From assembly GCA_964291415.2 (NCBI GenBank), contig OZ219917.1, positions 704,001 to 768,000 on the forward strand: a stretch of 64,000 nucleotides of DNA, written 5' to 3'. Each line of letters opens with the position of its first letter. Within the stretch, counting starts at the first letter, position 1. The notes beneath the pieces are model-generated. The model worked only from the letters and a program-made list of their open reading frames with translations, was not told the DNA's origin and did not search any database. Positions 30,864 to 47,831 of this stretch are shown here, piece after piece. A program made the position numbers and the translations under genes. Source of the stretch: Alphaproteobacteria bacterium. Lineage in GTDB: Bacteria; Pseudomonadota; Alphaproteobacteria; SP197.

Positions 30864-30885
30864 CATAGTGAGAGGGAGTGACGCG

Positions 30886-31110: not shown

Positions 31111-31489
31111 CACGCACATTCTCGTCTTTTCACTCACCGGTGCATTGCGATCCGGGGAATGTGCGGCATTGAGTCAAGCGAGGTGGTCGATTTCCGCGAT
31201 CGTGTTGTGGGAACTGGCAAAGCTCATCCGGCTTGGACGGCTGGACATGGATCTCGAAGACCGCCAGATTGCCCGTGTTCTGAATGGTCTGCATGTCTGG
31301 CCATTCGATCTGGACGTCGCCAGAATGTCAGTAAATCTCGATTTCAGAGGCGATCCGGCCGACGAGATCATCGCCGCGACGAGCATCGTTCACGACGTAC
31401 CCCTGATCACCCGCGACCGCGTCATCCGACAATCCAGGATGGTTCCACTCGCCGCATTGCACGAAACGGCAGGGAGGTCTGAAACCTGA
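31097..31489 (+). CDS. vapC: VapC-family PIN-domain toxin
   Basis: LDTH, ISAIVLWE, DPADEIIAAT and LITRD. Overlaps the antitoxin. Confidence 0.9.
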   Translation: MLNLDTHILVFSLTGALRSGECAALSQARWSISAIVLWELAKLIRLGRLDMDLEDRQIARVLNGLHVWPFDLDVARMSVNLDFRGDPADEIIAATSIVHDVPLITRDRVIRQSRMVPLAALHETAGRSET

Positions 31490-32207: not shown

Positions 32208-32843
32208 ATGGAGAGGTCCGGGCGTTTCAGCGACGTCGTGACGACGTCGGATGAACTGCGGGAGATCGTGGGCGAGGTCATTCCGGCTGCGGTCACCAAG
32301 GTGATCGATCACCTTGACGGCTTCTGCATCGATTTCATCCGCCATGCGCCGTTCTTCGTCATCGGTTCGGGAGGGGGTTCACGCGATGTCGATGTCTCGC
32401 CGAAAGGCGATCCCGCAGGATTCGTGAGGATCATCGACAGCACGACCCTCGCCATCCCCGACCGGCCGGGCAATGCCCGCATGGACACGTTCCTCAACGT
32501 GCTCGAGAATCCGAAGGTGGCCCTCATCTTCCTGGTTCCCGGGCGCAAGGACACGCTGAGGGTGGCCGGTCGGGCGGAGATCGTGGCCGACGAGGCCCTG
32601 CGGCGCTCCATGACCGAACACGGGAAGGTACCCCGACTTGTCATGATCGTTCATGTCGAGCACGCCTTCTTCCATTGCACGAAGTGCATGGTTCGCTCGA
32701 ACCTGTGGAAGCCCGAGGCATGGCCGGACACCTCCGGCATGCAGAGTTTCGGCGCCGCGATCGTTGCCCAGGCGAAGCTCAAGGAGACGGCGAGCGAGGC
32801 CGATGCTTCCATGAAGGACGCCGAGCAGAACAGGCTCTACTGA
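32208..32843 (+). CDS. pyridoxamine-5'-phosphate-oxidase-like FMN-binding protein (MSMEG_1061-like)
   Basis: DVSPKGDPAGFV, IPDRPGN, LIFLVPG, TLRVAG and FFHCTKC..RS.LW. Confidence 0.88.
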   Translation: MERSGRFSDVVTTSDELREIVGEVIPAAVTKVIDHLDGFCIDFIRHAPFFVIGSGGGSRDVDVSPKGDPAGFVRIIDSTTLAIPDRPGNARMDTFLNVLENPKVALIFLVPGRKDTLRVAGRAEIVADEALRRSMTEHGKVPRLVMIVHVEHAFFHCTKCMVRSNLWKPEAWPDTSGMQSFGAAIVAQAKLKETASEADASMKDAEQNRLY

Positions 32844-33071
32844 TGCCGCGGTCCGCCGCTGCTGACGGACCATCACGGCGCGAGAGCGTGGTGATACGTG
32901 CGTGATGCAGGCACCTCCGGCGGTAGCCGGGACAGGCATGTGGCGTCAGCCGGCGTCCGGAGTGCGCACCTGTTCTGCTGACTGGAGTGTCCGGCTCGCC
33001 GGTTTGGCAAGGCGCGAGCCCCCTGAAGCCGCCGCCGGGGCAATCTTGGCCGGAAGAGGTCGTTCGCCCCG

Positions 33072-33944
33072 TTATCGTGCTGGCCGCGTTCCGGAGATGA
33101 AGCGGTAGGTGAACAAGCCTTGCGACAGTCCCGAAGCGTAGGAGACGGATGCGTCCATCCAGTCCAGCAAGTCCGGATTGGTCTTGCCGAGATGAGGGTT
33201 CAGGAACGACATCGTCAGGTACGTCCGGCGGATTTCCTCTGTCGACGGGATCGCCTCGGCGGAGAGGTCCCGTTCCTCGATGTCCTCGAAGCCCGCTTCT
33301 TCCAGCACCGTGCATGTATCACGCCACGTGCCCATCGGCGCCAGGCGCCAGTTTCGCTCCACGGCCTCGACAAGCGCCCGATGTTCGTCCGGCACCGGTG
33401 CTCTCTTCAGAAAGCCGCCGTCCAGGGCCTGCCAGCGCCCGCCGGGCTTCAACACCCGGTAGACACCCCGGAGATACGCTGGTTTGTCGTACGCATGGCA
33501 GAAGGACTCCTGGTTCAGGACCGCATCGAAGCAGGCGTTGGAAAACGGCAGTTCCATGAAGTCACCGCAGAGAAACTCCACCAGATGGCCGACCCCGCGC
33601 TCTTGCGCGCATCGCGCCGCCAGGGCGACATGGGGCGCGCAGTTCGTCAACCCGGTGACCCGGACGCCATGCGTCTGCGCCAGGGCGATTGCCGTGGCGC
33701 CCGCGCCGCAGCCGGCATCCAGTACATGCCGTCCCGGACCGAGGGGGCATCCTTGGGTCAGAATGTCGTTGGCGCGTTCCAGGCTTTCCCGCCTGGTCCT
33801 CGTACCCGGCCCCCAGAGGCCGCGATGAAGATGGGGCGGCTCCTCGCGTTCTGTCGACAGAAGCCCGGTCAGCGAGGCATACAGTTCGGCAACCGAACCC
33901 TGCGTTCCGGTACTGCCGGACGAATCCGCTCCCTCAGCGTCCAT
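33072..33944 (-). CDS. class I SAM-dependent methyltransferase (tocopherol/sterol/RebM-like), in the RiPP cluster
   Basis: HLHRGLW, VLDAGCGAG, GDFMELPF, FDAV...ESFCH and RVLKPGG. Confidence 0.9.
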   Translation of the reverse strand: MDAEGADSSGSTGTQGSVAELYASLTGLLSTEREEPPHLHRGLWGPGTRTRRESLERANDILTQGCPLGPGRHVLDAGCGAGATAIALAQTHGVRVTGLTNCAPHVALAARCAQERGVGHLVEFLCGDFMELPFSNACFDAVLNQESFCHAYDKPAYLRGVYRVLKPGGRWQALDGGFLKRAPVPDEHRALVEAVERNWRLAPMGTWRDTCTVLEEAGFEDIEERDLSAEAIPSTEEIRRTYLTMSFLNPHLGKTNPDLLDWMDASVSYASGLSQGLFTYRFISGTRPAR

Positions 33945-34007
33945 TCCGGATCACTCCGGCAGAGGGTTCCCACAACGCGGAATGCTGTCGGGAGCCGTGT
34001 GTTGCCC

Positions 34008-35273
34008 TCAGCTCCATTCGACTGTCAGTTGCTTCAGCCCGCGAAACGTGATTGTCCGGAAAATGTCCGGCGAACCGCCGTCCGCCAGTCTCATGCCGGG
34101 CAGGCGGCTGGTCAGTTCTTCCAGGGCGATCTTCATCTCAAGCCGGGCGAGCTGTGCCCCGAGACAGAAATGCGCGCCATGGCCGAACGAGAGATGGTCC
34201 CGGGCATTCTTGCGCTCGATGTCCATCGTCTCGCCGTCCGGGAAAACGGTCTCGTCGCGGTTGCCGGAGGCGAGCAGCAGCAGGATTGTCGCGCCCGACG
34301 GAATCTGCCGCCCGGCGATCTCGGCGTCGCGCGTGGCGAGGCGGGGGAATGCCAGAAGAGGGGTGCCGAGGCGCAGGATTTCCTCGACCGCGTTGGGGAT
34401 GAGGCCGGTGTCGGCACAAAGGCGCCCCCACACGTTTCCGTCCGCCAGCATGGCCCTGATGCCGTGGGCCAGCGAATGGCTCTGGTTGTCCGCCCCCGCG
34501 GTCTGCAGCAGGAACACGAAGTTGTGGAGATAGTTGTCGGTGAAGAGCGACGGGGTCGCCCGGCGCGTCCGCACGATGTCGCCGAGATAGTTGTCGCCGG
34601 GATTCTCGATAGCGGCCCTGGCCAGCCCGCCGCTGAACGACCACAGCCGGACAACCATTTCCATCAGGGAGACCTGCGCGGCTTCGGTCACGGTCCCCCA
34701 GGTTTCGACCCGCCGCATTCCGCCTGGCCACCTGGCGAGGTCGAACTCCTCGTCGTCGCCGCCAAGAAGGTGGAAGGTCATCCGGGCGGCAGCCGGCTGC
34801 AGGAACCGGGCGATCAGGTCGGCGCGGCCATCCTCGATGAAGCTGTCGATCTGACTCGAAACGATCGCGCGAATTCTCGGCTCGTATTGCGCCACGCTGC
34901 GTGCGGAAAGGCCGTCTGCGAAGATACGCCGGTTGTCACGGTGAGAGGCCGGCTCCTCGTCCGCCAGAGTAGGTTCCAGCCGCACTCCGGCCGAGCGATA
35001 CACTTCCTCTGCCCTGGGGCATAGCGGCACGGGGGGCTGACGCACATTGGCCGAAGAGAAGGTTTCCTGATCCCGGAAGACTGCGCGGATATCGCTGTAC
35101 CGGGCGACCGTCCACCAGCCGGTTTCGGGAACATGCAGAACCGGCGCCTCGGCTCTGGCCCAGGCGAAGAAGCGGTAGGGATCGGCATAGTACTCGGCAT
35201 GCCGCGAACCGTGCGGCGTGCCGGCGTGCGCCGCCAGCATCTCGTCGAACCGAGTCGCATTGGCTTCCGGCAT
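34008..35273 (-). CDS. cytochrome P450 (copy A), standalone heme domain resembling CYP116-type enzymes
   Basis: EEILR (ExxR), SGNRDE..F, HLSFGHGAHFCLG heme motif and I-helix AGADN. GAAGGAG RBS before ATG 35273. Confidence 0.95.
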   Translation of the reverse strand: MPEANATRFDEMLAAHAGTPHGSRHAEYYADPYRFFAWARAEAPVLHVPETGWWTVARYSDIRAVFRDQETFSSANVRQPPVPLCPRAEEVYRSAGVRLEPTLADEEPASHRDNRRIFADGLSARSVAQYEPRIRAIVSSQIDSFIEDGRADLIARFLQPAAARMTFHLLGGDDEEFDLARWPGGMRRVETWGTVTEAAQVSLMEMVVRLWSFSGGLARAAIENPGDNYLGDIVRTRRATPSLFTDNYLHNFVFLLQTAGADNQSHSLAHGIRAMLADGNVWGRLCADTGLIPNAVEEILRLGTPLLAFPRLATRDAEIAGRQIPSGATILLLLASGNRDETVFPDGETMDIERKNARDHLSFGHGAHFCLGAQLARLEMKIALEELTSRLPGMRLADGGSPDIFRTITFRGLKQLTVEWS

Positions 35274-35495
35274 CTCCTTCTCCGCGACAGCGATCCTGCT
35301 CGATCCGTCGAAAACAGTAGCGCGCCAGCCTGGAGACGGACAAGTCTGTCTCCCTGTCCGTCCGGTGTTGAAACTCCTTCCCGGCCGATGGCAGAGCCGT
35401 CCCCGGGCGGGGCGTGTGGTCGATCTGCGAGGTGAGAATTCAGGGGTTCCCACGCCGCGTTCTTGAGCCATTGCACCGCCGCCGCGGAACCAGGG

Positions 35496-36761
35496 TCAAC
35501 TCCAGTCGACCGTCAGGTGCTTCAGTCCGCGGAAACTGAAGGTCCGGAAGACTTCCGGTGGCCTGTCATCCGCCAGCCTCATGTCGGGCAGACGGCGGGT
35601 CAGTTCCTCCAGAATGACCTTCATCTGGAGCCGGGCGAGCGGCGCCCCAAGGCAGTAATGCACGCCATGGCCGAACGTCAGGTGATCCCGTGCGTTCTCC
35701 CGGTCGATGTCCATCGTCCCGCCGTCCGGGAACACCGTCTCGTCGCGGTTGCCCGAAGCGAGGAGCAACAGGACCCGGGCACCAGCCGGAATCCGCCGCC
35801 CGGCGACTTCAACGTCCCGGGTTGCGAGCCGCGGGAACATCAGCGTGGGCGTGCACAGGCGCAGGATCTCTTCGGCCGCGTTGGGGATGAGGCCGGGATC
35901 GGCGCAAAGGCGTGCCCACATGTCACCGTTCGCCAGCATGGCCCGGATGCCGTGGGCAAGCGAGTGGCTCTGGGTGTCCGCCCCCGCCATCTGGAGCGCG
36001 ATCACGACATTGTGGAGATAGTTGTCCGTGAACAGGGACGGGTCCGCCCGGCGCGACCGGACGATATCGCCGAGATAGTTGTCGCCGGGCTCCTCGATGG
36101 CGGCTTCGAGCAACGAGCCGCCGAACGACCACAACCGGACGACCATGTTGACCAGGGAGATTTGAGCTGCCTCGCTCGGGGCGCCCAGGATCTGGACCCT
36201 CGGGATGCCGCCCGGCCAGTCGGCGAGGTCGAAATTCTCGTCGTCACCGCCGAGCAGGTGGAACGTCATCCTGCTCGCGACAGGATGGAGGAACCGGATG
36301 ATGAGGTCCACCCGACCTTCGTCGGCGAGGCCGTCGATCAGTTGCGAAACGATCGCGCGGATCTTTGGTTCGTACTGCTTGACGATGCGCGCGGAGAGAC
36401 CTTTGCCGAAAAGACGCCGGCTGCGGCGGTGGGCGGTCGAATCCTCGTCGATCAGCGCGGGCTCCAGCCGCACACCGGCGGAGCGGTAGATCTCCATCGC
36501 CCTCGGGCAGAGCGGCACGGGGAACTGGCGGACGTTGGCCGACGAGAATGTCTCCGGGTCCCGGAAAACCGCGCGAATGTCGTCAAAGCGGGAGACCGCC
36601 CACGCGTCGAGCTCCGGAATGTGCAGAACGGGCGCTTCGGCCCGGGCCCAGGCGAAGAAGCGGTATGGATCGGCGAAGTACTCGGCATACCGCGAACCGC
36701 GCAGAGTGCCGGCATGCGAGGTGAGCATCTCGTCGAACCGCACCGCGCCTTGTTCGGACAT
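35496..36761 (-). CDS. cytochrome P450 (copy B), tandem paralog of copy A
   Basis: EEILR, HLTFGHGVHYCLG and I-helix AGADT. Long identical blocks with copy A (DPYRFFAWARAEAPVLH, DPSLFTDNYLHN versus TPSLFTDNYLHN). Confidence 0.95.
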   Translation of the reverse strand: MSEQGAVRFDEMLTSHAGTLRGSRYAEYFADPYRFFAWARAEAPVLHIPELDAWAVSRFDDIRAVFRDPETFSSANVRQFPVPLCPRAMEIYRSAGVRLEPALIDEDSTAHRRSRRLFGKGLSARIVKQYEPKIRAIVSQLIDGLADEGRVDLIIRFLHPVASRMTFHLLGGDDENFDLADWPGGIPRVQILGAPSEAAQISLVNMVVRLWSFGGSLLEAAIEEPGDNYLGDIVRSRRADPSLFTDNYLHNVVIALQMAGADTQSHSLAHGIRAMLANGDMWARLCADPGLIPNAAEEILRLCTPTLMFPRLATRDVEVAGRRIPAGARVLLLLASGNRDETVFPDGGTMDIDRENARDHLTFGHGVHYCLGAPLARLQMKVILEELTRRLPDMRLADDRPPEVFRTFSFRGLKHLTVDWS

Positions 36762-37255
36762 TTGCGTCTCCGCATCAGACTTCGCTGCGCCGTCAGCCGC
36801 CGGGACCGCGCCCCGGGCTGTGATGGAGGCCCCCGGCGACCATCGCGGCATCCGGCGTGCAGGGCCGACTCGTTCAGGTTGCCACGGTAAGCAACTTGAG
36901 GGCGAGAGTGTCGCTTACGGGGTCGGAGGATTCCAGAGTGGAACGGACCGTTCCGGCGGACCTCGTGATTCGCGAGTCATGCTTCGCAGAGAGGGCGTTC
37001 CGTGCCTTCGCCAGGGAGCGGCTGACAGGTCGCTCGGATTGCGGCGCATCTGTGGGTCGCGATGTCCGCGAGGAGACTGCCCTGGTTTCGATGGCGCGGG
37101 CGGGGCGGAACACGTTCGCACCCGCAGGCGGCTGGAGATCAGGGAGGTGCAGGCGAACGTCGTGCAGCAGCCGGTGGTGAAGTGGTTTTCAAATGTCATC
37201 GCTTCTGGCAGGGTGACGGCCTTGCTGTTGCACATGTCCTCGAAGGAGAACAACG

Positions 37256-37534
37256 ATGACCAAGGCGATCGAAACCAGCCAAGGGGCGATGACGGCATCC
37301 CAGGTCCGCGAACAACTCCTCGCGCAGGCGGCCGAGAGCGAAGAGTTTCGCGCGCGGTTGCTTGCAGACCCTCGGGCAACCCTGAGGGAAGACTACGGCA
37401 TCGTGTTGCCGGAGAACCTGAAAGTGTGCGTCCACGAGGAGGATGCGACAACGGCGCACCTGGTGTTGCCGCCTTCGAAGAGGCTTACCGACGCCGAACT
37501 GGAAGCAGCATCAGGCAGCGGCGGCTATTACTGA
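37256..37534 (+). CDS. NHLP-leader (proteusin-type) RiPP precursor with a very short core (GGYY)
   Basis: EEFRARLLADPRATL...GIVLPENLKVCVHEEDATTAHLVLPP...LTDAELEAASG is the classic nitrile-hydratase-like leader. Strong GAAGGAG RBS. Lies upstream of NHLP-type transporters. Confidence 0.92.
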   Translation: MTKAIETSQGAMTASQVREQLLAQAAESEEFRARLLADPRATLREDYGIVLPENLKVCVHEEDATTAHLVLPPSKRLTDAELEAASGSGGYY

Positions 37535-37603
37535 TTTCGCCTCCGGGTCCTGTCGTCGCCTGCGTGTCCGCGCAGCGACGTAGCCGGTGCGTCCCTTGTC
37601 CGG

Positions 37604-38671
37604 TTGACCGGAATGACCGGAGGCCGGCTCCCCTCAGGCCGCGGCAAGTCATCTCACGATAACGATGCGGCGAGTTTCGCCGATGTCATCGAGCTGGTCC
37701 GCTGTGTGTTGCCCGCAGGGCTCATCGACGGCCGCGGCTGGGAGCAGCTGGCGGAACGGGCCGGACGGTTGCCGATGTCGGCGGCTGACGCCATGTTCGG
37801 CTTCGAGTGCCGCCTTGATGATTCGGAAGCTTCGGCCGATTTGCTGCTCTCCGTTCTCAAGGACACGCCATTTGTCGAGGTGCTCGTCCAGGAGGGCGCG
37901 GTCGCCGGTTCGAGAGCAGCGGCGCTGGCTCGATTCCTGACCGAAGTGCGGCAGCCGGATTCCTCACTGGGAGCGGCCGTCGGCCAGGTGGCGCTGGAGT
38001 ACGACATCGTCGGAATGAAGGACTTTCCGGCTCCGGGCATTTTCTTTTGCAGCGCTGACGAGAGCGGATACACCGATCCCGGATTGTTGGCGTCAGCGGG
38101 CGCGCTGGCCGCGGGCTGGAACGAGAATGCGTCCGAGCGTCGCGGGATCGAGCGCATCCTGGCCGCCCTGCCACGAGGTGCCGCGGTGCGTTGGGCTGGC
38201 GTGTTCCCGGATCGGAAGATACGGGCGGTGCGGCTGCTGGTTCGCGCCCTGGGCGACGCCCGGCCGGCGTTCCTGGAGCAGATGGGCTGGTCGGGCGATG
38301 CGGACGCCATCGAGGGAATTGTCTCGGCGTTCCGTTCCCGGGACGTGGAGAATCCCGTTCTCGCCCTCGATGTGGCCGGAGACCGCGTTTCGACGGGGCT
38401 TGGTCTGGAGCTGTCCCGGCAGGGGCGCAGCAGTGGCTGGCGTGAGGCGCTCGACATGATGACGCGCCGCGGCTGGTGCCTGCCCGAGAAAGCGGTCGCG
38501 CTGGGCTGCGTCTCCGGTAGCGAGCGGATTTACTCGTCTGGCGGAGCGTGGGACCTTCATTGTGGACTCCACCATGTCAAGCTCGCTGTTTCCGCAGGCG
38601 GTCCTCGGTTCAAGAACTATGCCGCGCGGGCGAAAGGCTATATTACCTGCGTTCTTCGCTCCGTGCCGTGA
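37604..38671 (+). CDS. uncharacterised RiPP-cluster protein, paralog 1 (putative maturase, possibly prenyltransferase-like)
   Basis: Directly downstream of the precursor. FGFECRL, ALEYD, PGIFF, LALDV, GLGLEL, GWCLPEK, HHVKL and AKGY are shared with 44668-45720. Confidence 0.7.
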   Translation: MTGMTGGRLPSGRGKSSHDNDAASFADVIELVRCVLPAGLIDGRGWEQLAERAGRLPMSAADAMFGFECRLDDSEASADLLLSVLKDTPFVEVLVQEGAVAGSRAAALARFLTEVRQPDSSLGAAVGQVALEYDIVGMKDFPAPGIFFCSADESGYTDPGLLASAGALAAGWNENASERRGIERILAALPRGAAVRWAGVFPDRKIRAVRLLVRALGDARPAFLEQMGWSGDADAIEGIVSAFRSRDVENPVLALDVAGDRVSTGLGLELSRQGRSSGWREALDMMTRRGWCLPEKAVALGCVSGSERIYSSGGAWDLHCGLHHVKLAVSAGGPRFKNYAARAKGYITCVLRSVP

Positions 38672-38686
38672 TCGAGGGAGAGGTCC

Positions 38687-39484
38687 TTGGCTGAACTAGG
38701 CGAAAGCCAGTTTCGTGAGAGCGCGTTCGCCCGCAACGCAGAGCCCGAGCCGCTGGACGACCGAGCGCAACTGACTGCTCCGCATGAGTGGGTTGTGCTG
38801 GCGTGCCTGGGACTGGTCGCGGCGGCCATCATTGCCTGGGGCGTATTCGGCAGCGTGGAGCGAACAGTGCGGTCAGACGGCGTGCTGGTCCTGTCCGGCG
38901 ATCGGCATACCGTGCTGTCCGAAGAGTCCGGTGTGGTAGTCGAAGTCCTGACGCCGGCGGGGAATCGGGTGGATTCGGGTCAGCCGATCGTCAGGATCGC
39001 CGCTTCCGGTCCCGAACGGACAGAGGGCGACGTCACGAGTCCCGGCGATGGGGTGATTGCAACGCTCCATGTCGCACGCGGCCGGACGGTCCTGGCCGGT
39101 ACCCCGGTCGCCGAGGTGGTGTCCGGAGGCGCCCACGTGCTCGACGCCGTCGCTTTCGTGCCGCGCCAGGAGTCGTGGCGGCTCGCCCCCGGCATGGCCG
39201 GCCGCGTGACCGTGGAATCGTCCGGATCGGTCGGATCCTTCAGGGTCAACCTCACCACTGTCGGGACGCGTGCCGCAGAACCTCCGGATTGGCTTGTGCG
39301 GATGCAGCCGAGTGTCGCAGCCGGGGGCCGGGGTCATCTCCTCCGGCTCACGTTTTCGGACCCTGTGCTTCCCGCGAGCTCGACCGGGAACGCCCTGCCA
39401 GGAAGCCTTGAGGACGGGACACCCTGCCGGATCGAGATTGTCCTTGAGCGCACATCTCCATTCGGCCTGCTGCTCCGGCTCTAG
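38687..39484 (+). CDS. NHLP-system HlyD-family secretion adaptor, short form
   Basis: F..SAF..A.PEPLD, one TM helix ending AWGVFGSV, lipoyl-like halves (SGVVVEV..GQPIV / VTSPGDGVI), LAPGM and C-terminal I..ERTSP. Confidence 0.8.
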   Translation: MAELGESQFRESAFARNAEPEPLDDRAQLTAPHEWVVLACLGLVAAAIIAWGVFGSVERTVRSDGVLVLSGDRHTVLSEESGVVVEVLTPAGNRVDSGQPIVRIAASGPERTEGDVTSPGDGVIATLHVARGRTVLAGTPVAEVVSGGAHVLDAVAFVPRQESWRLAPGMAGRVTVESSGSVGSFRVNLTTVGTRAAEPPDWLVRMQPSVAAGGRGHLLRLTFSDPVLPASSTGNALPGSLEDGTPCRIEIVLERTSPFGLLLRL

Positions 39485-39520
39485 GAACGCGCCGCGGGAA
39501 ACGGAGACGCAACCCGGACA

Positions 39521-41728
39521 ATGTCTGCTTACGCCCATGGCCTGAGAGAACGGTGGCGGCATCTGTTCACGGGCCGCGTGCGCACACCTCTTGTGCTTCA
39601 GATTGAGGCGACCGAATGCGGAGCAGCCTGTCTGGCTTCGGTTCTCCGCCATTTCGGATGCTGGGTGTCGCTGGAGGAGATGCGCGAGGCGTGCGCCGTC
39701 AGCCGCGATGGCTGTTCGGCCGCCGACATCGCGCGCGCGGCGCGGCAGTACGGACTTGAAACAACGGGCTGGAAGCAGGAGATCGGAGACCTTCCCGGCC
39801 TCTCTCTTCCGGCCATTTTGTTCTGGGAATTCCGTCATTTCGTTGTTCTGGAGGGTATCGGGAAGGGACGATACCTCATCAACGATCCGGGCCGTGGCCG
39901 GCGCGTGATCGACGAAGACGGCTTCGATCGCGCCTTTACCGGTGTGGCACTGGAACTCAAGCCCAGCGGGTCGTTTTGCCGCAAGGCGCCGCCACCGGGT
40001 GTGCTGCGCCGGCTGTGGCCCTGGATAAGCGGCTTCAGATCGTCACTCCTGTTCTCGCTGCTGGCCGGGTTGCTGCTTGCGATTCCGGGAATTGCGGCTC
40101 CGGTGCTGCTTGGACTCTTCGTCGATGCTGTTCTCAGAGGCGGGCAGCACGACTGGGGCGGCACATTGATCGGCGCGATGACCGCTGCCGGCATTGCCGT
40201 CTACATCCTCACCTGGCTTCGCGAGAGGTCGTTGCGGCGTCTGGCGGTCGCCGTCGCCGTCCGTCAGGCGGACCGCTTCGTCGGCCGCCTGTTGAGCAGG
40301 TCGGCCCAGTTCTTCGCCCGGCGCATGGCGGGAGATCTGCTGTCGCGGGCGCAGTCGATCGAGCAGGTCGTCGCCATCGGCGTCGTTCAGCTCGTGGGCG
40401 TGGCCGCTGATCTGGCAATGAGTCTCGCCTTCCTGTCGCTGATGGTCGTTTACGATGCCGGACTCGCGGCTGTGGTGATCTTCATCGCGGCGGCGTGCGC
40501 CGCCGCGGCGCGTTTCACCAGCCGCTACCGGACCGATGAAAGCCATGGCCTGCAGCGCGAACAGGGTCTGTGGATCGGCGTCGGCCTCGCCGGACTGCGC
40601 AACGTCGAGGCCCTGCGCGCGACCGCGTCCGAGAACGATTTCTTCTCCCGCTGGAGCGGCCATCAGGCACGCGAGCTGAACGCCCGGCAGAGGTTCGAGG
40701 AACTCGGTCACGTCACGGAAGCCGTCCCGGTCCTGTTCACCGCGCTTGCCGGAACAGCAGTGCTCGGGATTGGCGGCTGGCAGATGATTCACGCCGAGAT
40801 GACGCTGGGCAGCCTCATGGCGTTCTACATGCTGGCCTGGGGATTCCTCCAACCGATTGGCCGGTTCGTGCAGTTCGCGGAACTGTTGCGCACGCTGGAC
40901 GCGGAGTTGGCACGGCTCGAGGAGGTGCTCGACGCTCCGAGCTCCCGAAACGACGCGGCATCGACCATCGCGCCTCGGATTGCCACTGTTGACGGGAGGC
41001 TGCGGCTGCGCGGACACCTCGAGATGCGCAACGTCACTTTCGGATTCAGGCGCTACCGGCCGCCGTTGATCGAAGGATTCAACCTCGTGATCGAACCCGG
41101 TCAGCGAATTGCCATCGTCGGGCCGAGTGGATCGGGCAAGTCCACCCTGTCGCTGCTGGCGGCGGGGATCCACCGGCCCTGGTCCGGCGAAATCCTGTTC
41201 GACGGCATTCGCCGCGACGAGGTCCCGCGCGACGTCCTCAACGATTCGATTTCGGTCGTGTCCCAGGATACGGCGCTCATCGAGGGCTCATTGCGCGACA
41301 ATCTCACCCTGTGGAATCCGACCGTCCCCGATTCGCAGCTGATCGCCGCGGCCCGGGACGCGGCGATCCATGACGACATCATGGCCAGAGTCCACGGTTA
41401 CGACGCCGAGGTCGAGGAAGGAGGGCTCAATTTCAGCGGCGGCCAGCGCCAGCGGCTGGAAATCGCCCGCGCGCTGGTTCACGGTCCCTCGTTGCTGATT
41501 CTCGACGAGGCCACGGCAGCGCTCGATGCGATCACCGAGAACCGGATCGACGACGCATTGCGCCGTCGCGGCTGCTCCTGCCTGATTGTCGCCCACCGCC
41601 TGAGCACGATCCGTGACAGCGACCGGATCATCGTGCTCGACCATGGACGTGTGGTTCAGGACGGTACCCACGACGAACTGATCGCCTCCGAGGACGGTCT
41701 CTATGCGGAGCTGGTTCATGCCTCCTGA
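39521..41728 (+). CDS. NHLP-family peptidase-containing ABC exporter (C39 peptidase + permease + ATPase)
   Basis: RTPLVLQIEATECGAACL (Q/C), FRHFVV (H), INDP (D), GPSGSGKS, FSGGQRQRLE, LILDE and AHRLSTIR. Confidence 0.95.
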   Translation: MSAYAHGLRERWRHLFTGRVRTPLVLQIEATECGAACLASVLRHFGCWVSLEEMREACAVSRDGCSAADIARAARQYGLETTGWKQEIGDLPGLSLPAILFWEFRHFVVLEGIGKGRYLINDPGRGRRVIDEDGFDRAFTGVALELKPSGSFCRKAPPPGVLRRLWPWISGFRSSLLFSLLAGLLLAIPGIAAPVLLGLFVDAVLRGGQHDWGGTLIGAMTAAGIAVYILTWLRERSLRRLAVAVAVRQADRFVGRLLSRSAQFFARRMAGDLLSRAQSIEQVVAIGVVQLVGVAADLAMSLAFLSLMVVYDAGLAAVVIFIAAACAAAARFTSRYRTDESHGLQREQGLWIGVGLAGLRNVEALRATASENDFFSRWSGHQARELNARQRFEELGHVTEAVPVLFTALAGTAVLGIGGWQMIHAEMTLGSLMAFYMLAWGFLQPIGRFVQFAELLRTLDAELARLEEVLDAPSSRNDAASTIAPRIATVDGRLRLRGHLEMRNVTFGFRRYRPPLIEGFNLVIEPGQRIAIVGPSGSGKSTLSLLAAGIHRPWSGEILFDGIRRDEVPRDVLNDSISVVSQDTALIEGSLRDNLTLWNPTVPDSQLIAAARDAAIHDDIMARVHGYDAEVEEGGLNFSGGQRQRLEIARALVHGPSLLILDEATAALDAITENRIDDALRRRGCSCLIVAHRLSTIRDSDRIIVLDHGRVVQDGTHDELIASEDGLYAELVHAS

Positions 41729-44651
41729 CCGCAGGGACAGACCGCAGCCGGATGGTCTCCCAGCCGGCGGCCCGGATCGCCGGTCCCTCGCTGAAATGGC
41801 CATGGCGCTGGGTGAGTCGGTCGTTGCCGGCAACCGTTTCCTGCCGCTCGACGATCCCGCAAGCCTGTGGTTTGTCGAGAGCGGCGCCCTCGACGTCTTC
41901 CTGGTCGGAGTCAGTGACGGACTGGACGAAGCGCCCTTTCGCCATGTGCTGAGGCTGGAGGCCGGCGGCCTCGCCTTTGGCGCCACCAGCAACGAGGAGC
42001 TGCGCCTTGCGGCCAAGGGCCTGCCGGACACGGTCCTGCGGCGCATACCAGCAGCCGGTCTCATCGCGGGCGCTGCCGGCGATGCCGATGGTTGGCAGCG
42101 CATCGTGGCGGAGGACGCCGACAACTGGGTCGCCGGCATCATCGCCGCAGTCGCCGCCGGGGTCGAGGTGCGCCCGCGTTCCGACATGCTGCTGTGCGAA
42201 GGGACTGTGACCGGGGCCAGCGGCATCCTGACGAGCAACGAAGGCGTGTTCTGGATCGAGGGCGCGCCGGCGCTGTTCTTCGGCACCGAGGATCCGATGG
42301 AAGGAGAACTCGTGGCGGTCGCGCCGGACGGTTGGGTGGCGCTGCACGGCCGCGCCGACATCACGGTCCTGTCTTCGCGGACGCTCGGGGCCGAAGCGCT
42401 GCTGTCCCGGGCCCTGCCGGGCTTCCACCGCCTGGCGTTCGCCGCTCAGATGTTCAATCGCCGGATGCTGCTGGCTGATCAGGCCGGTCTTCAGGTCGAA
42501 CGTACGATATGGCGCCGGCGCGACGAGAACCAAGCGCGGAGGAACCTGTTCACGCTTCACGCGTCGACCCGCCCCGCCGCCTCCGGCGGCGGGGCTCTGA
42601 TGGCAGCGCTGTGCGCAGTCGGACGCCATGAGGGAATTGCCATCCGGGAGCCTGGCAACCGCTCGGATGAGCCGCCGGTGCTGGCCGACCTGTTGCACGC
42701 ATCGGGAGTTCGGGCACGGCGGATACGCCTGGTGTCCGGGGAACGCTGGTGGCGCGGCGACAGCGGCGCCATTCTGGCCTTCCGGCGCGACAGCGGCGAG
42801 CCTGTTGCTCTCCTGCCCGGCGTCATGGGGCGTTACCGCCTCTTCGACCCGGCAACCGCTGAGTCGTCGCTGGTCGGACGAAGTGACACAGCCACTCTTG
42901 CCCCGGATGGTTATGTCCTCTACCGGCCGCTGCCCGATGACCGGCCCCTTGGCACGTGGACCCTGCTGGCGGGTGCCGCCGGCCGGTTCGGCGCAGATCT
43001 CGCCCGTGTCATTGCTGCCGGCCTGGCGGCTGGTGTCCTGGCCCTGGCGCCGGCGGCTGGCATCGGCGTGCTGCTCGACCGCGTGGTTCCCTCGGGCGAC
43101 GGCGGTGCGCTCCTGCAGCTCACGCTGGTGCTGGTCCTACTCGCGCTCGCGGCGGCGCTGACCCATGTGCTGCGCGGCACGGCGGTCATGCGTATCGAGG
43201 GTCGGCTCGCCGCGCGCGCGACTGCCGCCCTGTGGGACCGTCTGCTGCGGCTGCAAACCAGTTTCTACCGCCAGTACAGTTCCGGCGAGATATCCATGAG
43301 GGCGCTGGCTTTCCAGACGCTGCGCGACCGGCTCTCCGGCGCGACCGGGACCGCGGTGCTGTCCCTCCTGTTTCTCATTCCTTCGATCATCCTCGTGTTC
43401 CTGTGCGACGCCGCACTCGGCTGGGCAACTCTGGGCATCGGCATTGCCGCGCTCGCCGTAACGGTCGCATTCGGGGTAGCGCAGATGGCCGCGCAGCGCC
43501 TCCGGTTTCGCGAGGAGCGCGTGCTCGCCGGCCATCTCCTGCAGCTCATCGACTGCGTTCGCAAGCTGCAGGCCGCTGGAGCGGAAGGGTCGGCCCGGGC
43601 GTCCTGGGCGCGGCGCTACAGGAAACAGAAACAGGCCGAGATTCGCGTCGGCATCCTGAACGAGCACCTCAAGGCGTTCAGTGCCGCGGTGCCCCTGGTG
43701 GCGGCGGCGACGCTTCTTGCCGTTGCCGCCACGCGGGAAGACGGCATGCTCGATGTCGGCGAATTCCTCGTCGCCTATGTCGCCTCGATGATGTTCTACG
43801 CCTCCATCGTCGCGCTTGGCGCGGCGTTCGAGGCCATTGCCTCGTTCGGACCGGTCTGTGAACAGGTCCTGCCCATTCTCGCAGGCACACCCGACTCCCG
43901 GCCGAAGCCAGGCCCGCCACCCGTGCTCGGCGGCGCGCTTCGCTTCGAATCCGTGAGCTTCCGCTATGGTGACGACGGCCCGCTGATTCTCGATCAGGTC
44001 TCCATCGAGGCCCAGCCGGGTGAATTCGTCGCTGTTGTCGGCGAGTCCGGCGCCGGCAAGAGCACGCTCATTCGCCTCGCGCTCGGCCTCGAGATGCCCA
44101 CAAGTGGCGCGGTCTATTACGACGAGCGCGATCTTGCCCATCTCGATCCGGTTGTGGTGCGCCGGCAGGTCGGCGCGGTCCTCCAGGATTCCGGCACGCA
44201 AATCGGCACCGTTCTCAACAACATCATCAGCCTGGACCAGTCCCTGACCGCAGACGACGCCTGGCGCGCCGCACGCAAGGCAACGGTTGACCGCGACATC
44301 GCGGCAATGCCGATGCGGATGCACACCAGCATGGGGGAACGCGCGGTCGTCGTGTCCGGTGGGCAGAGTCAGCGAATCCGCATCGCTCAGGCGCTGGTCC
44401 GCGACCCACGCATCGTCTTGCTCGACGAGGCCACCAACTGGCTGGACCGTCGGAACCAGGCGGCCCTGATGAAGGGAATTCGCGACTCGACCGCCACGAG
44501 GGTGGTGGTCGCCCACCGAATATCGACGATCCGCGAAGCGCACCGAATCTATGTGCTCAAGGCCGGAAGAGTTGTTCAGGTCGGGCGCTTCGATGAACTT
44601 GCCAGCACGGACGGCCCGTTCCGCGAACTGGTGAGCCGGCAGATGTCGTGA
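41718..44651 (+). CDS. NHLP-system second ABC transporter (permease/ATPase, no active C39 domain)
   Basis: N-terminal WFVESGALDVF, SGVRARRIRL...WWRGDSG, GESGAGKS, SGGQ, LLDEAT and AHRISTIR. Confidence 0.92.
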   Translation: MPPDRRDRPQPDGLPAGGPDRRSLAEMAMALGESVVAGNRFLPLDDPASLWFVESGALDVFLVGVSDGLDEAPFRHVLRLEAGGLAFGATSNEELRLAAKGLPDTVLRRIPAAGLIAGAAGDADGWQRIVAEDADNWVAGIIAAVAAGVEVRPRSDMLLCEGTVTGASGILTSNEGVFWIEGAPALFFGTEDPMEGELVAVAPDGWVALHGRADITVLSSRTLGAEALLSRALPGFHRLAFAAQMFNRRMLLADQAGLQVERTIWRRRDENQARRNLFTLHASTRPAASGGGALMAALCAVGRHEGIAIREPGNRSDEPPVLADLLHASGVRARRIRLVSGERWWRGDSGAILAFRRDSGEPVALLPGVMGRYRLFDPATAESSLVGRSDTATLAPDGYVLYRPLPDDRPLGTWTLLAGAAGRFGADLARVIAAGLAAGVLALAPAAGIGVLLDRVVPSGDGGALLQLTLVLVLLALAAALTHVLRGTAVMRIEGRLAARATAALWDRLLRLQTSFYRQYSSGEISMRALAFQTLRDRLSGATGTAVLSLLFLIPSIILVFLCDAALGWATLGIGIAALAVTVAFGVAQMAAQRLRFREERVLAGHLLQLIDCVRKLQAAGAEGSARASWARRYRKQKQAEIRVGILNEHLKAFSAAVPLVAAATLLAVAATREDGMLDVGEFLVAYVASMMFYASIVALGAAFEAIASFGPVCEQVLPILAGTPDSRPKPGPPPVLGGALRFESVSFRYGDDGPLILDQVSIEAQPGEFVAVVGESGAGKSTLIRLALGLEMPTSGAVYYDERDLAHLDPVVVRRQVGAVLQDSGTQIGTVLNNIISLDQSLTADDAWRAARKATVDRDIAAMPMRMHTSMGERAVVVSGGQSQRIRIAQALVRDPRIVLLDEATNWLDRRNQAALMKGIRDSTATRVVVAHRISTIREAHRIYVLKAGRVVQVGRFDELASTDGPFRELVSRQMS

Positions 44652-44667
44652 GGCCCGCGCAGGGCCT

Positions 44668-45720
44668 TCATAGCGAGAGGATGTCGGATCCGATGGACTC
44701 GAAGGGAAGATAACCGGCGGCCGGATAGGCCTTGGCCTCGATCGCGTTCTCACCGTCTCGCGCCTCGAAGGACACCTTGACGTGAGCGAGGGAGGTCAAC
44801 AGGCCAAACGTCTTGCCTCCACAGAACACCAGTTCCCGTCCCGGCCAGGCCATCAGCCCGTCCATCTTCTCCGGAAGGCACAGTCCGCGTTCGCACAACC
44901 GGGCGAGGAAGGCCCCCCACGGACCTGCGCCCGAGTGGGTCAACGTCCCCGTCTTGCCCTGAAACAGCTCCAGCCCGACGCGCGGCAGGATGGCTTGCGC
45001 GGTCACGTCGAACGAGATCCGGAGCGCGTGGAACATCCCTTCGAACCGGGAAAGAAAGTCGGCAACTGCGTCGGCGGGCCCGTTCCAACCCAGGTCCTCC
45101 AGGACCGGCAATACGCGCGCCGGCTCCATCGACCGGCTGATGACCCTGTACGCTCGTGTCGGCCGGCCCGGCATGATCCCGAGATACTCGACCGCCGCGC
45201 CGTCCGCCGACATCCTGTCGAACGTCCGGCCGAGCACCCGGCGCTCCAGCCGCCAGCCGACCACGCCCGCGAGCCATTCCGCCACCGTGTCCATGGCATC
45301 GGTTCCGGTCCGGATCTTCACGAACAGTCCGGGAGGCGTGCCGTGCGGACCACCCGCTGCATCATACTCGACCGCAAGGAGTCCGAACCCGGACGCGCCG
45401 TCCCCGATCGCGGCAGGACCGGTGCCGAACTCGCCTTCCCATTCGCCGTGCCGCATGTAGTGTTCTGCAAGCGCCCCGGTTCGTGGCAGCATGACAAAGA
45501 TGTCCGCGTTGGCTGCCGTCTCGCCAAGCCGAAGCTCGAAACCGAAACCGGCGCCGGGCTCGACGGGCAGTCCCCGAACCGTCTCGTGCAGGCGGTGCCA
45601 GCCGACAGCGTCGATCAGCGCCGGGGATACCGCGCCCGAGAGGGCGTCGAGGATTGCGCCGAACGCGAAAGCGGCGTCTTCCGCCGACAGATCCGCCCGT
45701 GCTTTCCCCATGGGCGGCAC
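44668..45720 (-). CDS. uncharacterised RiPP-cluster protein, paralog 2
   Basis: FGFELRL, AVEYD, PPGLF, GIMPGR, ISFDV, RVGLEL, GLCLPEK, AHVKV and EAKAY, collinear with 37604-38671. Confidence 0.7.
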   Translation of the reverse strand: MPPMGKARADLSAEDAAFAFGAILDALSGAVSPALIDAVGWHRLHETVRGLPVEPGAGFGFELRLGETAANADIFVMLPRTGALAEHYMRHGEWEGEFGTGPAAIGDGASGFGLLAVEYDAAGGPHGTPPGLFVKIRTGTDAMDTVAEWLAGVVGWRLERRVLGRTFDRMSADGAAVEYLGIMPGRPTRAYRVISRSMEPARVLPVLEDLGWNGPADAVADFLSRFEGMFHALRISFDVTAQAILPRVGLELFQGKTGTLTHSGAGPWGAFLARLCERGLCLPEKMDGLMAWPGRELVFCGGKTFGLLTSLAHVKVSFEARDGENAIEAKAYPAAGYLPFESIGSDILSL

Positions 45721-45882
45721 GGTTCAGGTCGAGGTGGCGGGTGTCAAGCCCGTCCGGCCCCAATGCCCCATCCCTATGGCGAACAGACGTTGTCCGGCTG
45801 ACCGGTCCTCCGGGGCCGCCTTGCTCGCTGTTCGGGCGCACATTGGACGCCAACGGACTCGACGCAACCCGGCCCCTTGCCT

Positions 45883-46863
45883 TCAGGGGATGAGGACCGT
45901 GGATCCGGTTGTGTTCCTCTCCTCCATCAATTCGTGGGCCTTTGCGATGTCGGCGAGGTCGAAGGTCTGGCCGATGGTGACCTTCACCTTTCCGGTTCCC
46001 ACCATGTCGAAGACGCGCCGGGCGCAGGCTTCGAGCTCGAGGCGCGTCGCCGTGTAGTCGTCGAGCGTCGGCCGGGTGACGAAGATCGATCCCCTGGCCG
46101 CGAGCAGCAGCATGCGGAAGGGCTCCGGTTCGCCGGAGGACTGGCCGAAGGACACCAGGGTGCCGCGGGGGGCGAGGCATGCGAGACTGGATTCGAAACT
46201 CGTCCGGCCAATCGAATCGAACACCACCGGAACACCCCTGCCGGCCGTTTCGGCGCTCACCACCTCTTCTAGCGTGTCCTGGCCCCATATGACAGGGACG
46301 TGACAGCCGTTCATGCGCGCGAGGCGCGCCTTGGCGTCGCTGGAGACGGTGCCGATCACACGGGCGCCAAGCGCTCTCGCCCACTGGCAGGCAATGAGAC
46401 CGACACCGCCTGCCGCCGCATGGAAGACGATGGTCTGGCCGCGGCGCACGGGGACGCATCGCTCCAGCAGGTACTCGACCGTCATCGCCTTGGTCATCAT
46501 GGCGGCGGCTATGGTCTCCTCCATGTCCGCGGGCAGCCGCACGACCCGGGAGGCGTCGGCGTTCATGGCCTCGGCACAGTTCCCCGGGCCCGAGAGAACG
46601 GCGACGCGGTCGCCTTCGGCGAGGTGCTGGACGCCGGCGCCGAGCGCCTCCACCACGCCTGCCGACTCCGAGCCGGGCGTGACGGGAAGATCGACGGGAT
46701 AGAGTCCCCTGCGTTCGTAGATGTCGTAGAAGTTGAGAGCGATCGCGGTATTGCGCACCCGCACCTCGCCGGCGCCCGGAGGATCAAGGACCGTGTCGGC
46801 GAGTTCCAGAACCTGAGGGCCGCCACAACGCGCAAGGCGCACCGCCCTTATGGTTGCGCTCAC
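45883..46863 (-). CDS. NADPH:quinone oxidoreductase (zeta-crystallin/QOR), copy 2; GTG start overlaps the upstream stop
   Basis: GGPQVL, LNFYD...GLYP, HAAAGGVG, VVFDSIG, FGQSSG and TTGS. Confidence 0.88.
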   Translation of the reverse strand: MSATIRAVRLARCGGPQVLELADTVLDPPGAGEVRVRNTAIALNFYDIYERRGLYPVDLPVTPGSESAGVVEALGAGVQHLAEGDRVAVLSGPGNCAEAMNADASRVVRLPADMEETIAAAMMTKAMTVEYLLERCVPVRRGQTIVFHAAAGGVGLIACQWARALGARVIGTVSSDAKARLARMNGCHVPVIWGQDTLEEVVSAETAGRGVPVVFDSIGRTSFESSLACLAPRGTLVSFGQSSGEPEPFRMLLLAARGSIFVTRPTLDDYTATRLELEACARRVFDMVGTGKVKVTIGQTFDLADIAKAHELMEERNTTGSTVLIP

Positions 46864-47831
46864 GGGAGGAGAACCGTCGAACCCGTCGTTCGACGGCCTT
46901 CGAGATCGCGATGGGCTCGCTCGACGTCGTCCAGACGATAGGTCTGGTTGACCTCGATACGCACCTTGCCCGAGTCGACCATGGAGAAGAGGCGCTGTGC
47001 CGAAAGGTCGAGTTCCTCGCGGCTGGCAATGTAGTGGGCGAGGCCGGGCCGCGTGTAGTAGAGCGAGCCGCCGGCGGCAAGCCGCGCCGGATTGAAGCTC
47101 TCGACCGCGCCTGACGACTGACCGAAGGAGACCAGGGTGCCGCGAGACGCCAGCACCTCGAGCGACGCATCGAAGGTGTCCCTGCCGATCGAATCGTAGA
47201 CGACCGGAACACCCTTGCCGCCGGTGATGTCCATCACCCTTTCGACGATGTCCTCGCTGGACGTCACGATCGGATGGTGGCATCCGTGGGCGGCGGCGAG
47301 AGCCGCCTTTTCCGCGGTCGACACGGTGCCGATCACCTGGGCGCCCAGCGCCCGGGCCCACTGGCAGGCGATGAGACCGACGCCGCCTGCCGCGGCGTGA
47401 AAGAGAATGGTCTGTCCTTCCTGAACGGCGAATGTCCGCATGAGCAGGTACTCCACGGTCATGCCCTTCAGCATCATGGCGGCGGCGGTCTCGTCCGAGA
47501 CGCCGTCGGGGATCTTGACCAGCCGGTCCGCCGGCATGATGCGCTCGCCGGCGTAGGCCCCGGCAGTCATCGGGTAAGCGACCCTGTCGCCGACGCCGGG
47601 ATCCGTGACGCCGGAACCAACCGCCTCGACGACCCCGGCGGCCTCCATGCCCAGGGTCGCCGGCAGGGCGAGGGGATAGAGGCCCGAACGCTGATAGGTG
47701 TCGATGAAGTTGAGGCCGATCGCGGTCTGGCGGATCAGCACCTCGCCCGCCCCGGGTCGACCGGCATCGACCGTCTCGAGAGTCAGGACGTCGGGGCCAC
47801 CGGTCCTGTGGATACGCACGGCACGTGTCAT
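46860..47831 (-). CDS. qor: NADPH:quinone oxidoreductase, copy 1
   Basis: GGPDVL, GLNFIDTYQRSGLYP, HAAAGGVG, VVYDSIG and RRTTGS. AAGGAG RBS. Confidence 0.9.
   Translation of the reverse strand: MTRAVRIHRTGGPDVLTLETVDAGRPGAGEVLIRQTAIGLNFIDTYQRSGLYPLALPATLGMEAAGVVEAVGSGVTDPGVGDRVAYPMTAGAYAGERIMPADRLVKIPDGVSDETAAAMMLKGMTVEYLLMRTFAVQEGQTILFHAAAGGVGLIACQWARALGAQVIGTVSTAEKAALAAAHGCHHPIVTSSEDIVERVMDITGGKGVPVVYDSIGRDTFDASLEVLASRGTLVSFGQSSGAVESFNPARLAAGGSLYYTRPGLAHYIASREELDLSAQRLFSMVDSGKVRIEVNQTYRLDDVERAHRDLEGRRTTGSTVLLP

Follow-up and report, generated by a model that had tools for sequence, protein, structure and literature searches.

A candidate RiPP pathway pairing an NHLP leader and terminal Tyr-Tyr with ABBA-fold prenyltransferase-like proteins, cytochrome P450s and a methyltransferase

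Analysis of a 64,000-nucleotide stretch of alphaproteobacterial DNA (contig OZ219917.1 of assembly GCA_964291415.2, positions 704,001 to 768,000; hereafter the window) indicated that a nine-gene locus at window positions 33072–45720 is likely to encode a pathway for a ribosomally synthesised, post-translationally modified peptide (RiPP) centred on two tyrosines at the C-terminus of an NHLP-leader precursor, with two ABBA-fold proteins (A and B), two cytochrome P450s and a methyltransferase as the tailoring set. On the best reading of the data, the product would correspond to the last two to four residues only of the 92-residue precursor. The complete scheme, in which prenyl groups are actually transferred and the tailored C-terminal Tyr-Tyr is then released from its leader and exported, is assigned a probability of roughly 0.6, and each specific chemical detail within it is tentative at best. 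An earlier note on this DNA had proposed, from the sequence alone, a very small modified Tyr-Tyr product carried on a large NHLP leader, and the computational tests that were run all lend support to that proposal.

The precursor peptide family and its cleavage register

The precursor gene (37256–37534, + strand), preceded by an AAGGAG motif at 37243–37248, 7 nt ahead of its ATG, specifies a peptide of 92 amino acids which scored 61.7 bits over residues 14–87 against the NHLP leader model TIGR03793 (cut-off 50.9), and which could be aligned with the solved NHLP leader 8tb1 (E = 3.3e-9). The C-terminus of the peptide reads LTDAEL-EAAS-GS-GG-YY, an L-x4-L motif followed by successive residue pairs and the terminal Tyr-Tyr (...ASGSGGYY).

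Searches recovered 79 relatives of the precursor, 62 of which (E ≤ 2.4e-28) constitute a close set; those beyond the closest 62 were ordinary NHLP peptides with longer cores. Within the close set the sequence terminated in YY in 56 cases, in WY in four, and in FW and CY in one case each. The Gly-Gly ahead of the tyrosines proved on this wider comparison to vary, and it is the terminal YY that is the conserved element.

Anchoring of the alignment on the conserved S-[KR]-x-L-[TS] segment established a register in which L-x4-[LM]-x4 is followed by a residue pair. At that fixed register the pair was GA in 46 precursors, GS in nine, GG in six and AG in one, i.e. G-[GAS] in 61 of the 62. Counted from the pair onward, the core comprised two residues in 42 precursors (YY in 40, WY in two), three residues in 16, and four to six in the remaining four. 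In those 42 sequences a putative double-glycine-type cleavage pair sits directly before a two-residue core, and cleavage would be expected at that point. The equivalent register in the window predicts a GGYY core (GS|GGYY), shortened to YY if the second GG is the cut site instead. L-x4-L serves C39 domains as a recognised docking motif (PMC12715784). Leader conservation, as judged from 30 sequences, amounted to a mean column identity of 75% with 16 invariant positions.

The ABBA-fold proteins A and B

The gene for protein A (37604–38671, + strand; 355 amino acids, or 352 in the database copy, which starts three residues later) lies downstream of the precursor gene, and that for protein B (44668–45720, − strand; 350 amino acids) closes the locus in the convergent orientation. 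Described earlier as two unknown paralogues, A and B are indeed related to one another, with 30% identity (E = 2e-29) and a common predicted barrel fold. AlphaFold2 modelling of A from a 34-row alignment gave a mean predicted local distance difference test score (pLDDT) of 88.2 and a predicted template modelling score (pTM) of 0.87, with five alpha-alpha-beta-beta repeats, and the equivalent model of B from a 44-row alignment (pLDDT 88.8, pTM 0.90) showed an order of secondary structure elements that fits the same five-repeat alpha-alpha-beta-beta barrel. Both proteins are thus confidently modelled as possessing the ABBA prenyltransferase fold.

Comparison of the models with the PDB by Foldseek returned 38 matches for A (best E = 9e-6) and 41 for B (best E = 1.3e-6) at E ≤ 0.001, and every one of the matches listed was an ABBA aromatic prenyltransferase. 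Those listed for A include AmbP1, AmbP3, EpzP, NphB/Orf2, TleC (4yzl) and CloQ, together with PagF, PirF, KgpF, DciF, FunA and DMATS1 with bound L-Tyr; the top matches for B were led by NphB/Orf2, followed by EpzP, AmbP1, CdpNPT and DMATS1, with PagF and PirF also present. Prenylation of the product, raised previously as no more than a passing suggestion, has thereby acquired a basis in the predicted fold of two proteins of the cluster.

By sequence, neither A nor B could be assigned to the PTase_Orf2, Trp_DMAT, DUF5838 or cyanobactin F families. In a protein atlas, the clusters adjoining A bore no family name, and among those that did, the best placed were Trp_DMAT (0.90), DUF5838 (0.89) and PTase_Orf2 (0.89), values that express language-model likeness and have low recognition value. 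Among 5.8 billion proteins A had 63 relatives, none of them with a precomputed Pfam domain, and when 1.84 billion representatives (50% identity clusters) were searched in full with HMMER, the wider barrel family came to 3438 representatives at E ≤ 0.001, 2438 at E ≤ 1e-10 and 435 at E ≤ 1e-30.

Alignment of 68 diverse members of the family established residues E68, K326, K344 and Y346 as invariant, and D79, E132, D134, R204, R210, W279, K296 and H324 as at least 90% conserved. In ABBA enzymes the diphosphate is bound by K-x-Y and by R/K residues at alternating positions of the strands, and the set of basic, tyrosine and acidic residues conserved in A is suggestive of such a site. A tree of 70 members resolved an A clade (57 rows) and a B clade (five rows) with Shimodaira–Hasegawa-like approximate likelihood ratio (SH-aLRT) supports of 99 and 100 respectively, and in both clades the window sequence paired with that of the same related locus (L001, described below). 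The separation of the clades and the repeated pairing suggest that A and B are old paralogues that have been inherited together.

Structure prediction of A in complex with the precursor gave a median score of 0.38 (runs of 0.38, 0.24 and 0.47), the best of three controls reaching 0.01; at least 47% of contacts were common to the runs, and the pLDDT of the partner was at least 71. On calibration, 58 of 80 solved complexes and two of 110 mismatched pairs attained the mark applied to such scores, with only seven of the 80 solved complexes, and both of the mismatches, reaching it at scores of 0.60 or below; as the predictions for A were made from alignments prepared for this analysis, these counts apply only approximately. 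The result is taken as a mild point in favour of contact between A and the precursor.

Occurrence of the gene set in other genomes

A scan of one genome per species, covering 185,579 species, yielded five related loci, in metagenome-assembled genomes (MAGs) assigned to the Acidobacteria (L001), the Alphaproteobacteria (L002 and L005), the Rhodospirillales (L003) and the Spirochaetia (L004), the gene content of each being established by tblastn with the nine window proteins plus reading of precursor frames. A precursor ending in YY was present in all five (GGYY, GAYY, GAYY, SSYY and GAYY), as were A and B, the L003 copy of B being cut by the end of its contig. The co-occurrence of P450s and methyltransferases with NHLP precursors, on which the earlier note had staked its proposal, also recurred: at least one P450 gene was present in each of the five loci (two copies in both L001 and L004, a single copy in each of the other three), and a methyltransferase gene in four (L003 having two, and L002 one along with a fragment), its position and strand varying. 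The complete HlyD/ABC/ABC set, in which ABC denotes an ATP-binding cassette protein, was found in three. The presence of the same set in all five related loci argues that the arrangement is not due to chance. For 23 of 55 A-clade protein clusters, moreover, the longest contig was equal in size to that of a precursor cluster, which suggests that the two share a contig.

When 400 other genomes, sampled evenly across the phylum of the window, were searched with a profile of the barrel family, none gave a match at E ≤ 1e-10, and a scan of metagenome contigs with the family profile gave 33 pattern matches, none of which was confirmed. The patchy spread of the cluster over three phyla points to horizontal transfer; the contig that carries the window is 1.24 Mb long, which makes the mis-binning of a small contig an unlikely explanation.

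Examination of the flanks of L001, L002, L004 and L005 by greedy picking of open reading frames (ORFs) did not reveal a conserved extra gene. Of the 18 flanking ORFs 15 had no Pfam match and probably represent wrong-frame calls in high-GC DNA, the recognised genes encoding an EamA transporter in L005, a HEAT-repeat protein in L004 and, in L002, a member of the Asp/Asn beta-hydroxylase family. The last of these (L002:18434–18991, − strand; PF05118, E = 1.4e-46) adjoins the gene for B, and L002 was the only one of the four loci with such a gene in the flanks scanned.

A third paralogue in the same genome

The genome of the window encodes a third barrel paralogue (G000:C1:1079401–1080453; L009:11857–13035), which matched the family profile with E = 5.4e-58. 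Its gene adjoins that of a second NHLP precursor (L009:13072–13413, − strand) ending in ...EQLEAVSAG-LCCCW, i.e. with a five-residue core, and the same neighbourhood (G000:C1:~1073000–1092000; L009:1–19901 and L010:1–6200) includes genes for a YcaO protein (321 bits; L009:9526–11847) as well as for an MMPL transporter and another ABC pair of the NHLM type. The product of this second cluster is likely, as judged from its genes, to be a short thiazole-containing prenylated peptide. This second, independent case of a barrel protein beside a very short NHLP core favours the interpretation of the barrel family as leader-dependent peptide-modifying enzymes.

The same neighbourhood also contains a gene (L009:8037–9365, + strand) for a 442-residue protein, the first ~75 residues of which resemble an NHLP leader (NHase_alpha, E = 3e-4; tblastn to the window precursor, E = 7e-15), the remainder forming a large domain with a weak match to the squalene-hopene-cyclase C-terminal domain (E = 2.7e-4). 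This may represent a leader-like domain built into an enzyme.

Cytochrome P450s and methyltransferase

Two P450 genes are transcribed leftward from the divergent intergenic region, the nearer encoding P450 'a', the extra copy (35496–36851, − strand; PF00067, E = 3.5e-20), and the other P450 'b' (34008–35471, − strand; PF00067, E = 9.5e-20). The two share 73% identity. Alignments of orthologues to 'b' begin only at residues 62–73, so its true start probably lies downstream of 35471 in the direction of transcription. A P450 gene adjoins that of the YY-core precursor in all six loci, the window included, and the nine P450 copies compared are 59–89% identical.

Alignment indicated that both window enzymes carry the ExxR motif and the Cys loop FGHGxHxCLG (FGHGAHFCLG in 'b'). 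They were distinguished by the I-helix, which reads AGADT in 'a' and AGADN in 'b', Asn having replaced the usual Thr. The same replacement of the Thr of the I-helix acid-alcohol pair was found in seven of the nine copies, including the sole copy of each single-P450 locus; the Thr (AG[AS]DT) was retained in the extra copy of the window and of L001, and the second copy of L004 carries Asn and is not of the a-type. Loss of the conserved I-helix Thr is unusual for a plain hydroxylase, and that residue is absent from some coupling P450s, a likeness which serves as a hint only, the accessible part of PMC9023744 offering no confirmation of it.

The nearest solved structures to P450 'a' were 6ldl, 6gii, 6laa and 6kbh (E = 2e-83 to 2e-78), with 6ro8 (P450 RhF) at E = 1e-70, all five of which are presumably self-sufficient enzymes of the CYP116B class; the window P450s are without a fused reductase. 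A cyclodipeptide-synthase-associated P450 was considered and rejected, the model for that type (TIGR04538), although the best NCBIfam match of the window P450s, giving 142–150 bits relative to a cut-off of 500, other P450 models scoring similarly, and no cyclodipeptide synthase gene being present.

The methyltransferase gene (33072–33944, − strand) encodes a class I S-adenosylmethionine (SAM)-dependent enzyme of 290 amino acids (PF08241, E = 2.5e-21; PF13649, E = 4.1e-20), for which no NCBIfam model reached its cut-off. Its nearest solved relatives include MitM and a D-glucose O-methyltransferase (N-/O-type), BezA, a C6-farnesyl diphosphate methyltransferase, and geranyl diphosphate 2-C-methyltransferase (prenyl C-type), and 5gm1 (E = 3.4e-19), the last of which we take to be TleD. 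These relatives mix N-, O- and prenyl C-methyltransferases and so point to no single target of the enzyme.

Exporter genes

Three genes rightward of that for A encode a short HlyD-type adaptor (38687–39484, + strand; 265 amino acids; PF13437, E = 1.7e-10), a C39 peptidase/permease/ATPase exporter (39521–41728, + strand; 735 amino acids; PF03412 at residues 22–149, E = 2.3e-33) and a second ABC permease/ATPase (41703–44651, + strand; 982 amino acids). The strings ECGAAC and HFVVLEG are legible in the translation of the exporter. Of the three proteins, assigned in the earlier note to the transporter trio of NHLP loci, the C39-ABC protein exceeded the cut-off of TIGR03796 (860.7 vs 853.3 bits); the second ABC protein, matched by TIGR03797 over residues 298–981, fell just below (669.6 vs 709.4 bits), and the HlyD protein, which is short relative to the 421 positions of TIGR03794, clearly so (78.7 vs 156.2 bits). 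The remaining profile scans put forward in that note as a check placed the precursor above the TIGR03793 cut-off and matched both P450s to PF00067.

At its N-terminus the second ABC protein is extended by ~297 residues (window 41703–42590) that no Pfam or NCBIfam model matched. This stretch is conserved, orthologues from L001, L002 and L004 aligning with the window protein from residues 2–29 onward.

Locus layout and borders

Listing of ORFs combined with Pfam and NCBIfam scans reproduced exactly, in both coordinates and strands, the divergent layout of nine genes reported earlier. None of the nine proteins matched a YcaO, LanM, radical-SAM or halogenase family in the Pfam and NCBIfam scans, again as reported. 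The P450 and precursor operons are separated by a divergent intergenic region of 404 bp (36852–37255), and a promoter scan of 32800–46000 found no sigma-70-like consensus site, the two terminator-like sites detected falling within genes. Beyond the stop codon of the precursor, a 69-nt spacer (37535–37603, + strand) folds into three predicted hairpins with an energy of −30.6 kcal/mol (z = −2.61), a value equalled by three of 200 shuffled sequences; functionally, these hairpins may tune read-through into the downstream genes, or govern the abundance of precursor transcripts relative to those of the enzymes.

The upstream flank encodes an RNase_T exonuclease, a Phd/PIN pair and a PNPOx-like protein. 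The Phd/YefM-type antitoxin and PIN-domain toxin genes of that pair lie just upstream of the cluster, at 30859–31489, and together with the patchy taxonomic spread they fit a horizontally acquired region. Downstream, next to the gene for B, are two tandem paralogous genes of the Zn-alcohol dehydrogenase/quinone-oxidoreductase type (45883–47846, − strand), provisionally placed outside the cluster. In the related loci the nine cluster proteins matched nothing beyond the cluster genes by tblastn, the dehydrogenase pair not having served as query. The flanking genes being unrelated, the borders of 33072 and 45720 hold.

The proposed pathway and its alternatives

In the scheme envisaged, the folded NHLP leader would serve as a handle presenting the C-terminal Tyr-Tyr to the tailoring enzymes. 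A and B would each add an isoprenoid, most likely one per tyrosine at the phenol oxygen or an ortho carbon; one or two P450s would oxidise the aromatic pair by phenol coupling or ring hydroxylation, and the SAM-dependent enzyme would methylate an oxygen of a phenol or catechol, the carboxylate at the C-terminus or a carbon of a prenyl group. The C39 peptidase domain would then cut after the G-[G/A/S] pair that follows L-x4-L, and the HlyD/ABC/ABC proteins would export a small lipophilic molecule derived from a dipeptide to tetrapeptide.

A number of observations weigh against this scheme. Prenyl transfer, the sites of modification, the role of the P450s, the order of the steps and the cleavage itself are deduced from sequences and models rather than from chemical data, and all five related loci derive from MAGs, i.e. 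from uncultured producers. Neither A nor B matched any Pfam or NCBIfam model, none of the 68 diverse barrel-family members matched a Pfam family, and a PDB profile search with the family gave only a chance match (E = 1.9). The Foldseek TM-scores were modest (0.40–0.54, with root-mean-square deviations of 6–10 Å), the residues suggestive of a diphosphate site in A are known from the alignment and not from placement on the model, and the prediction of contact between A and the precursor was a weak pass. Pfam and NCBIfam scans detected no gene for a prenyl diphosphate synthase, ferredoxin or reductase in the cluster. The P450s appear closest to RhF-like enzymes, not to known peptide cross-linkers, and scored only 47–60 bits against the RiPP P450 model ApyO (cut-off 525). 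No methyltransferase gene lies within 10 kb in L004, the exporter is absent from the 21-kb L005 locus, and at L003:11045–11455 the first 104 residues of HlyD abut the last 44 of the second ABC protein, the exporter genes there appearing largely deleted; in L003 and L005 cleavage and export must either depend on genes elsewhere or the cluster must be decaying.

Several of these same points, namely the lack of a match between A or B and any known prenyltransferase sequence model, the low TM-scores, the missing isoprenoid supply gene and the weakly predicted binding of the leader, would also be explained if A and B had the ABBA fold without being prenyl-donor enzymes, and acted instead as chaperones or scaffolds for the P450 that bind the leader or the aromatic pair, or as catalysts of another reaction of tyrosine such as cyclisation or non-isoprenoid alkylation. 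This alternative is judged unlikely, in that every structural match listed is a prenyltransferase, and the charged and Tyr residues invariant on predicted strands in both paralogues and 68 distant relatives argue for catalysis; known ABBA enzymes, moreover, take dimethylallyl diphosphate or geranyl diphosphate from primary metabolism. That the P450s and methyltransferase are merely neighbours with another task, leaving only the prenyltransferases to act on the precursor, would suit their divergent transcription from the precursor operon, the varying position and strand of the methyltransferase gene and its absence from L004. It is nevertheless the least probable of the alternatives, given that a specific P450 clade stands directly beside the precursor in all five loci, across three phyla in which the wider flanking genes differ.

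The strong conservation of the leader, and the loss of exporter and peptidase from L003 and L005, raise the further alternative that the precursor is not cleaved at all, the 92-residue protein being itself the end product, with two prenyl groups and methylation at the terminal YY, and either lipid-anchored or secreted, by loose analogy with Rab proteins, which are doubly geranylgeranylated and carboxyl-methylated. Such an outcome is considered very improbable in the face of the near-universal G-[GAS] pair at a fixed distance after L-x4-L, of an operon-encoded C39-ABC protein that scores above the cut-off of an NHLP-specific model, and of the cleavage of NHLP-family leaders in known systems, as described in the part of PMC10853753 available. 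There remains a small chance, equal to that of a non-prenyl role for A and B, that the pathway is as described here and has already been characterised in a subscription-journal or very recent paper: RiPP genome mining is very active, the literature searched was thin in subscription journals, and NHLP precursors prenylated at a C-terminal Trp are known (PalX/PalQ). In the searched literature, mostly open, on NHLP or proteusin systems with P450, prenyltransferase and Tyr dipeptide, and on ABBA prenyltransferases with P450s in RiPPs, the gene set was not described, in agreement with the earlier note, in which it was not recognised as a described class, and the barrel family is without a Pfam or NCBIfam model despite its 3438 representatives. 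The available part of a 2023 review of RiPP P450s likewise mentions none with an NHLP leader. The tailoring, cleavage and export of the terminal Tyr-Tyr thus remains the preferred reading.

Comparison with known systems

One of the closest known parallels to A and B is provided by the cyanobactin F family (PagF, PirF, KgpF and DciF), the members of which are ABBA barrels with ribosomal-peptide substrates, PagF and PirF modifying Tyr; A and B, however, have no detectable sequence relationship with them. The substrates of cyanobactin enzymes are leaderless or cyclised peptides, and cyanobactin clusters carry PatA/PatG proteases, whereas here an NHLP leader is combined with a C39 exporter, and Pfam and NCBIfam scans of the nine proteins revealed neither a PatA/PatG-type subtilisin protease nor a cyanobactin precursor.

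Very short Tyr-rich cores tailored by P450s are also a feature of the cittilins (YIYY core, P450 CitB, methyltransferase CitC) and the biarylitides (MxYxH, one P450), with a methyltransferase shared in the case of cittilin. CitB forms Tyr-Tyr C-C and C-O-C links, as stated in the part of PMC10124130 consulted, and cittilin is released, by the same partial account, by a prolyl endopeptidase encoded elsewhere. Unlike the present locus, those systems have tiny precursors and lack an NHLP leader, a prenyltransferase and a dedicated C39 exporter.

The leader family and, most clearly for the C39-ABC protein, the NHLM exporter family are those of NHLP/proteusin-type loci such as polytheonamide and the sponge srp brominase cluster. 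To that extent the earlier description of the locus as proteusin-type stands, but it fails for the tailoring enzymes and the length of the core, there being no radical-SAM epimerase, YcaO, LanM or halogenase, and a core of two to four residues in place of tens. The widespread sponge srp brominase NHLP cluster itself was ruled out, no halogenase being present. In PalX/PalQ of Paenibacillus alvei, an NHLP-type precursor is prenylated at a conserved C-terminal aromatic residue and the leader improves turnover, as reported in the accessible text of PMC10853753. The NHLP-type precursor with its conserved C-terminal aromatic residue is common to both systems, but PalQ belongs to the isoprene-synthase (ComQ-like) superfamily, the core is an octapeptide (DNVRRFFW), and a histidine kinase gene is the neighbour, with no P450 or methyltransferase.

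The use of a long peptide as the scaffold for a one- or two-residue product has precedents in mycofactocin, derived from a C-terminal Val-Tyr, in pyrroloquinoline quinone and in the pearlins. Those pathways deploy radical-SAM or peptide aminoacyl-tRNA ligase (PEARL) enzymes to yield cofactors or amino-acid-derived metabolites, and their signature enzymes are not among the nine proteins here. In teleocidin biosynthesis the P450 TleB, the ABBA prenyltransferase TleC and the methyltransferase TleD act on a dipeptide made by a non-ribosomal peptide synthetase. The same trio of enzyme types would here act on an aromatic dipeptide from a ribosomal precursor, and TleC is among the fold matches of A, a likeness of logic only. 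It is a speculative extension, more easily wrong than right, that the smallest leader-dependent RiPP core (bare Tyr-Tyr in 40 of the 62 precursors), with a leader of ~88 residues that recruits a large unrecognised ABBA family, a Thr-to-Asn P450 and a methyltransferase, constitutes a ribosomal counterpart of teleocidin-like chemistry, spread horizontally among uncultured Acidobacteria, Alphaproteobacteria and Spirochaetes.

If the preferred reading is correct, the ribosomal peptide is in effect a scaffold on which a small lipophilic molecule is built, and the mycofactocin/pearlin idea is extended to prenylated aromatic dipeptides. A large unannotated family would acquire a fold and a likely function, with improved annotation and a new signature for RiPP genome mining, and the engineering of lipidated peptides could profit from leader-dependent prenyltransferases and P450s for which two residues suffice as a core. 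The occurrence of the cluster in three phyla, combined with the lack of a barrel-family match in 400 genomes from the phylum of the window, suggests a mobile trait under selection, so that an ecological function of the product, for instance in signalling or antagonism, is conceivable. Viewed by analogy, the locus would combine the Tyr prenylation of cyanobactins, P450 and methyltransferase tailoring of the cittilin type, NHLP/NHLM logistics and the scaffold principle of mycofactocin and the pearlins: a candidate new RiPP class assembled from known superfamilies, each building block having a precedent, together with a new ABBA sequence family.

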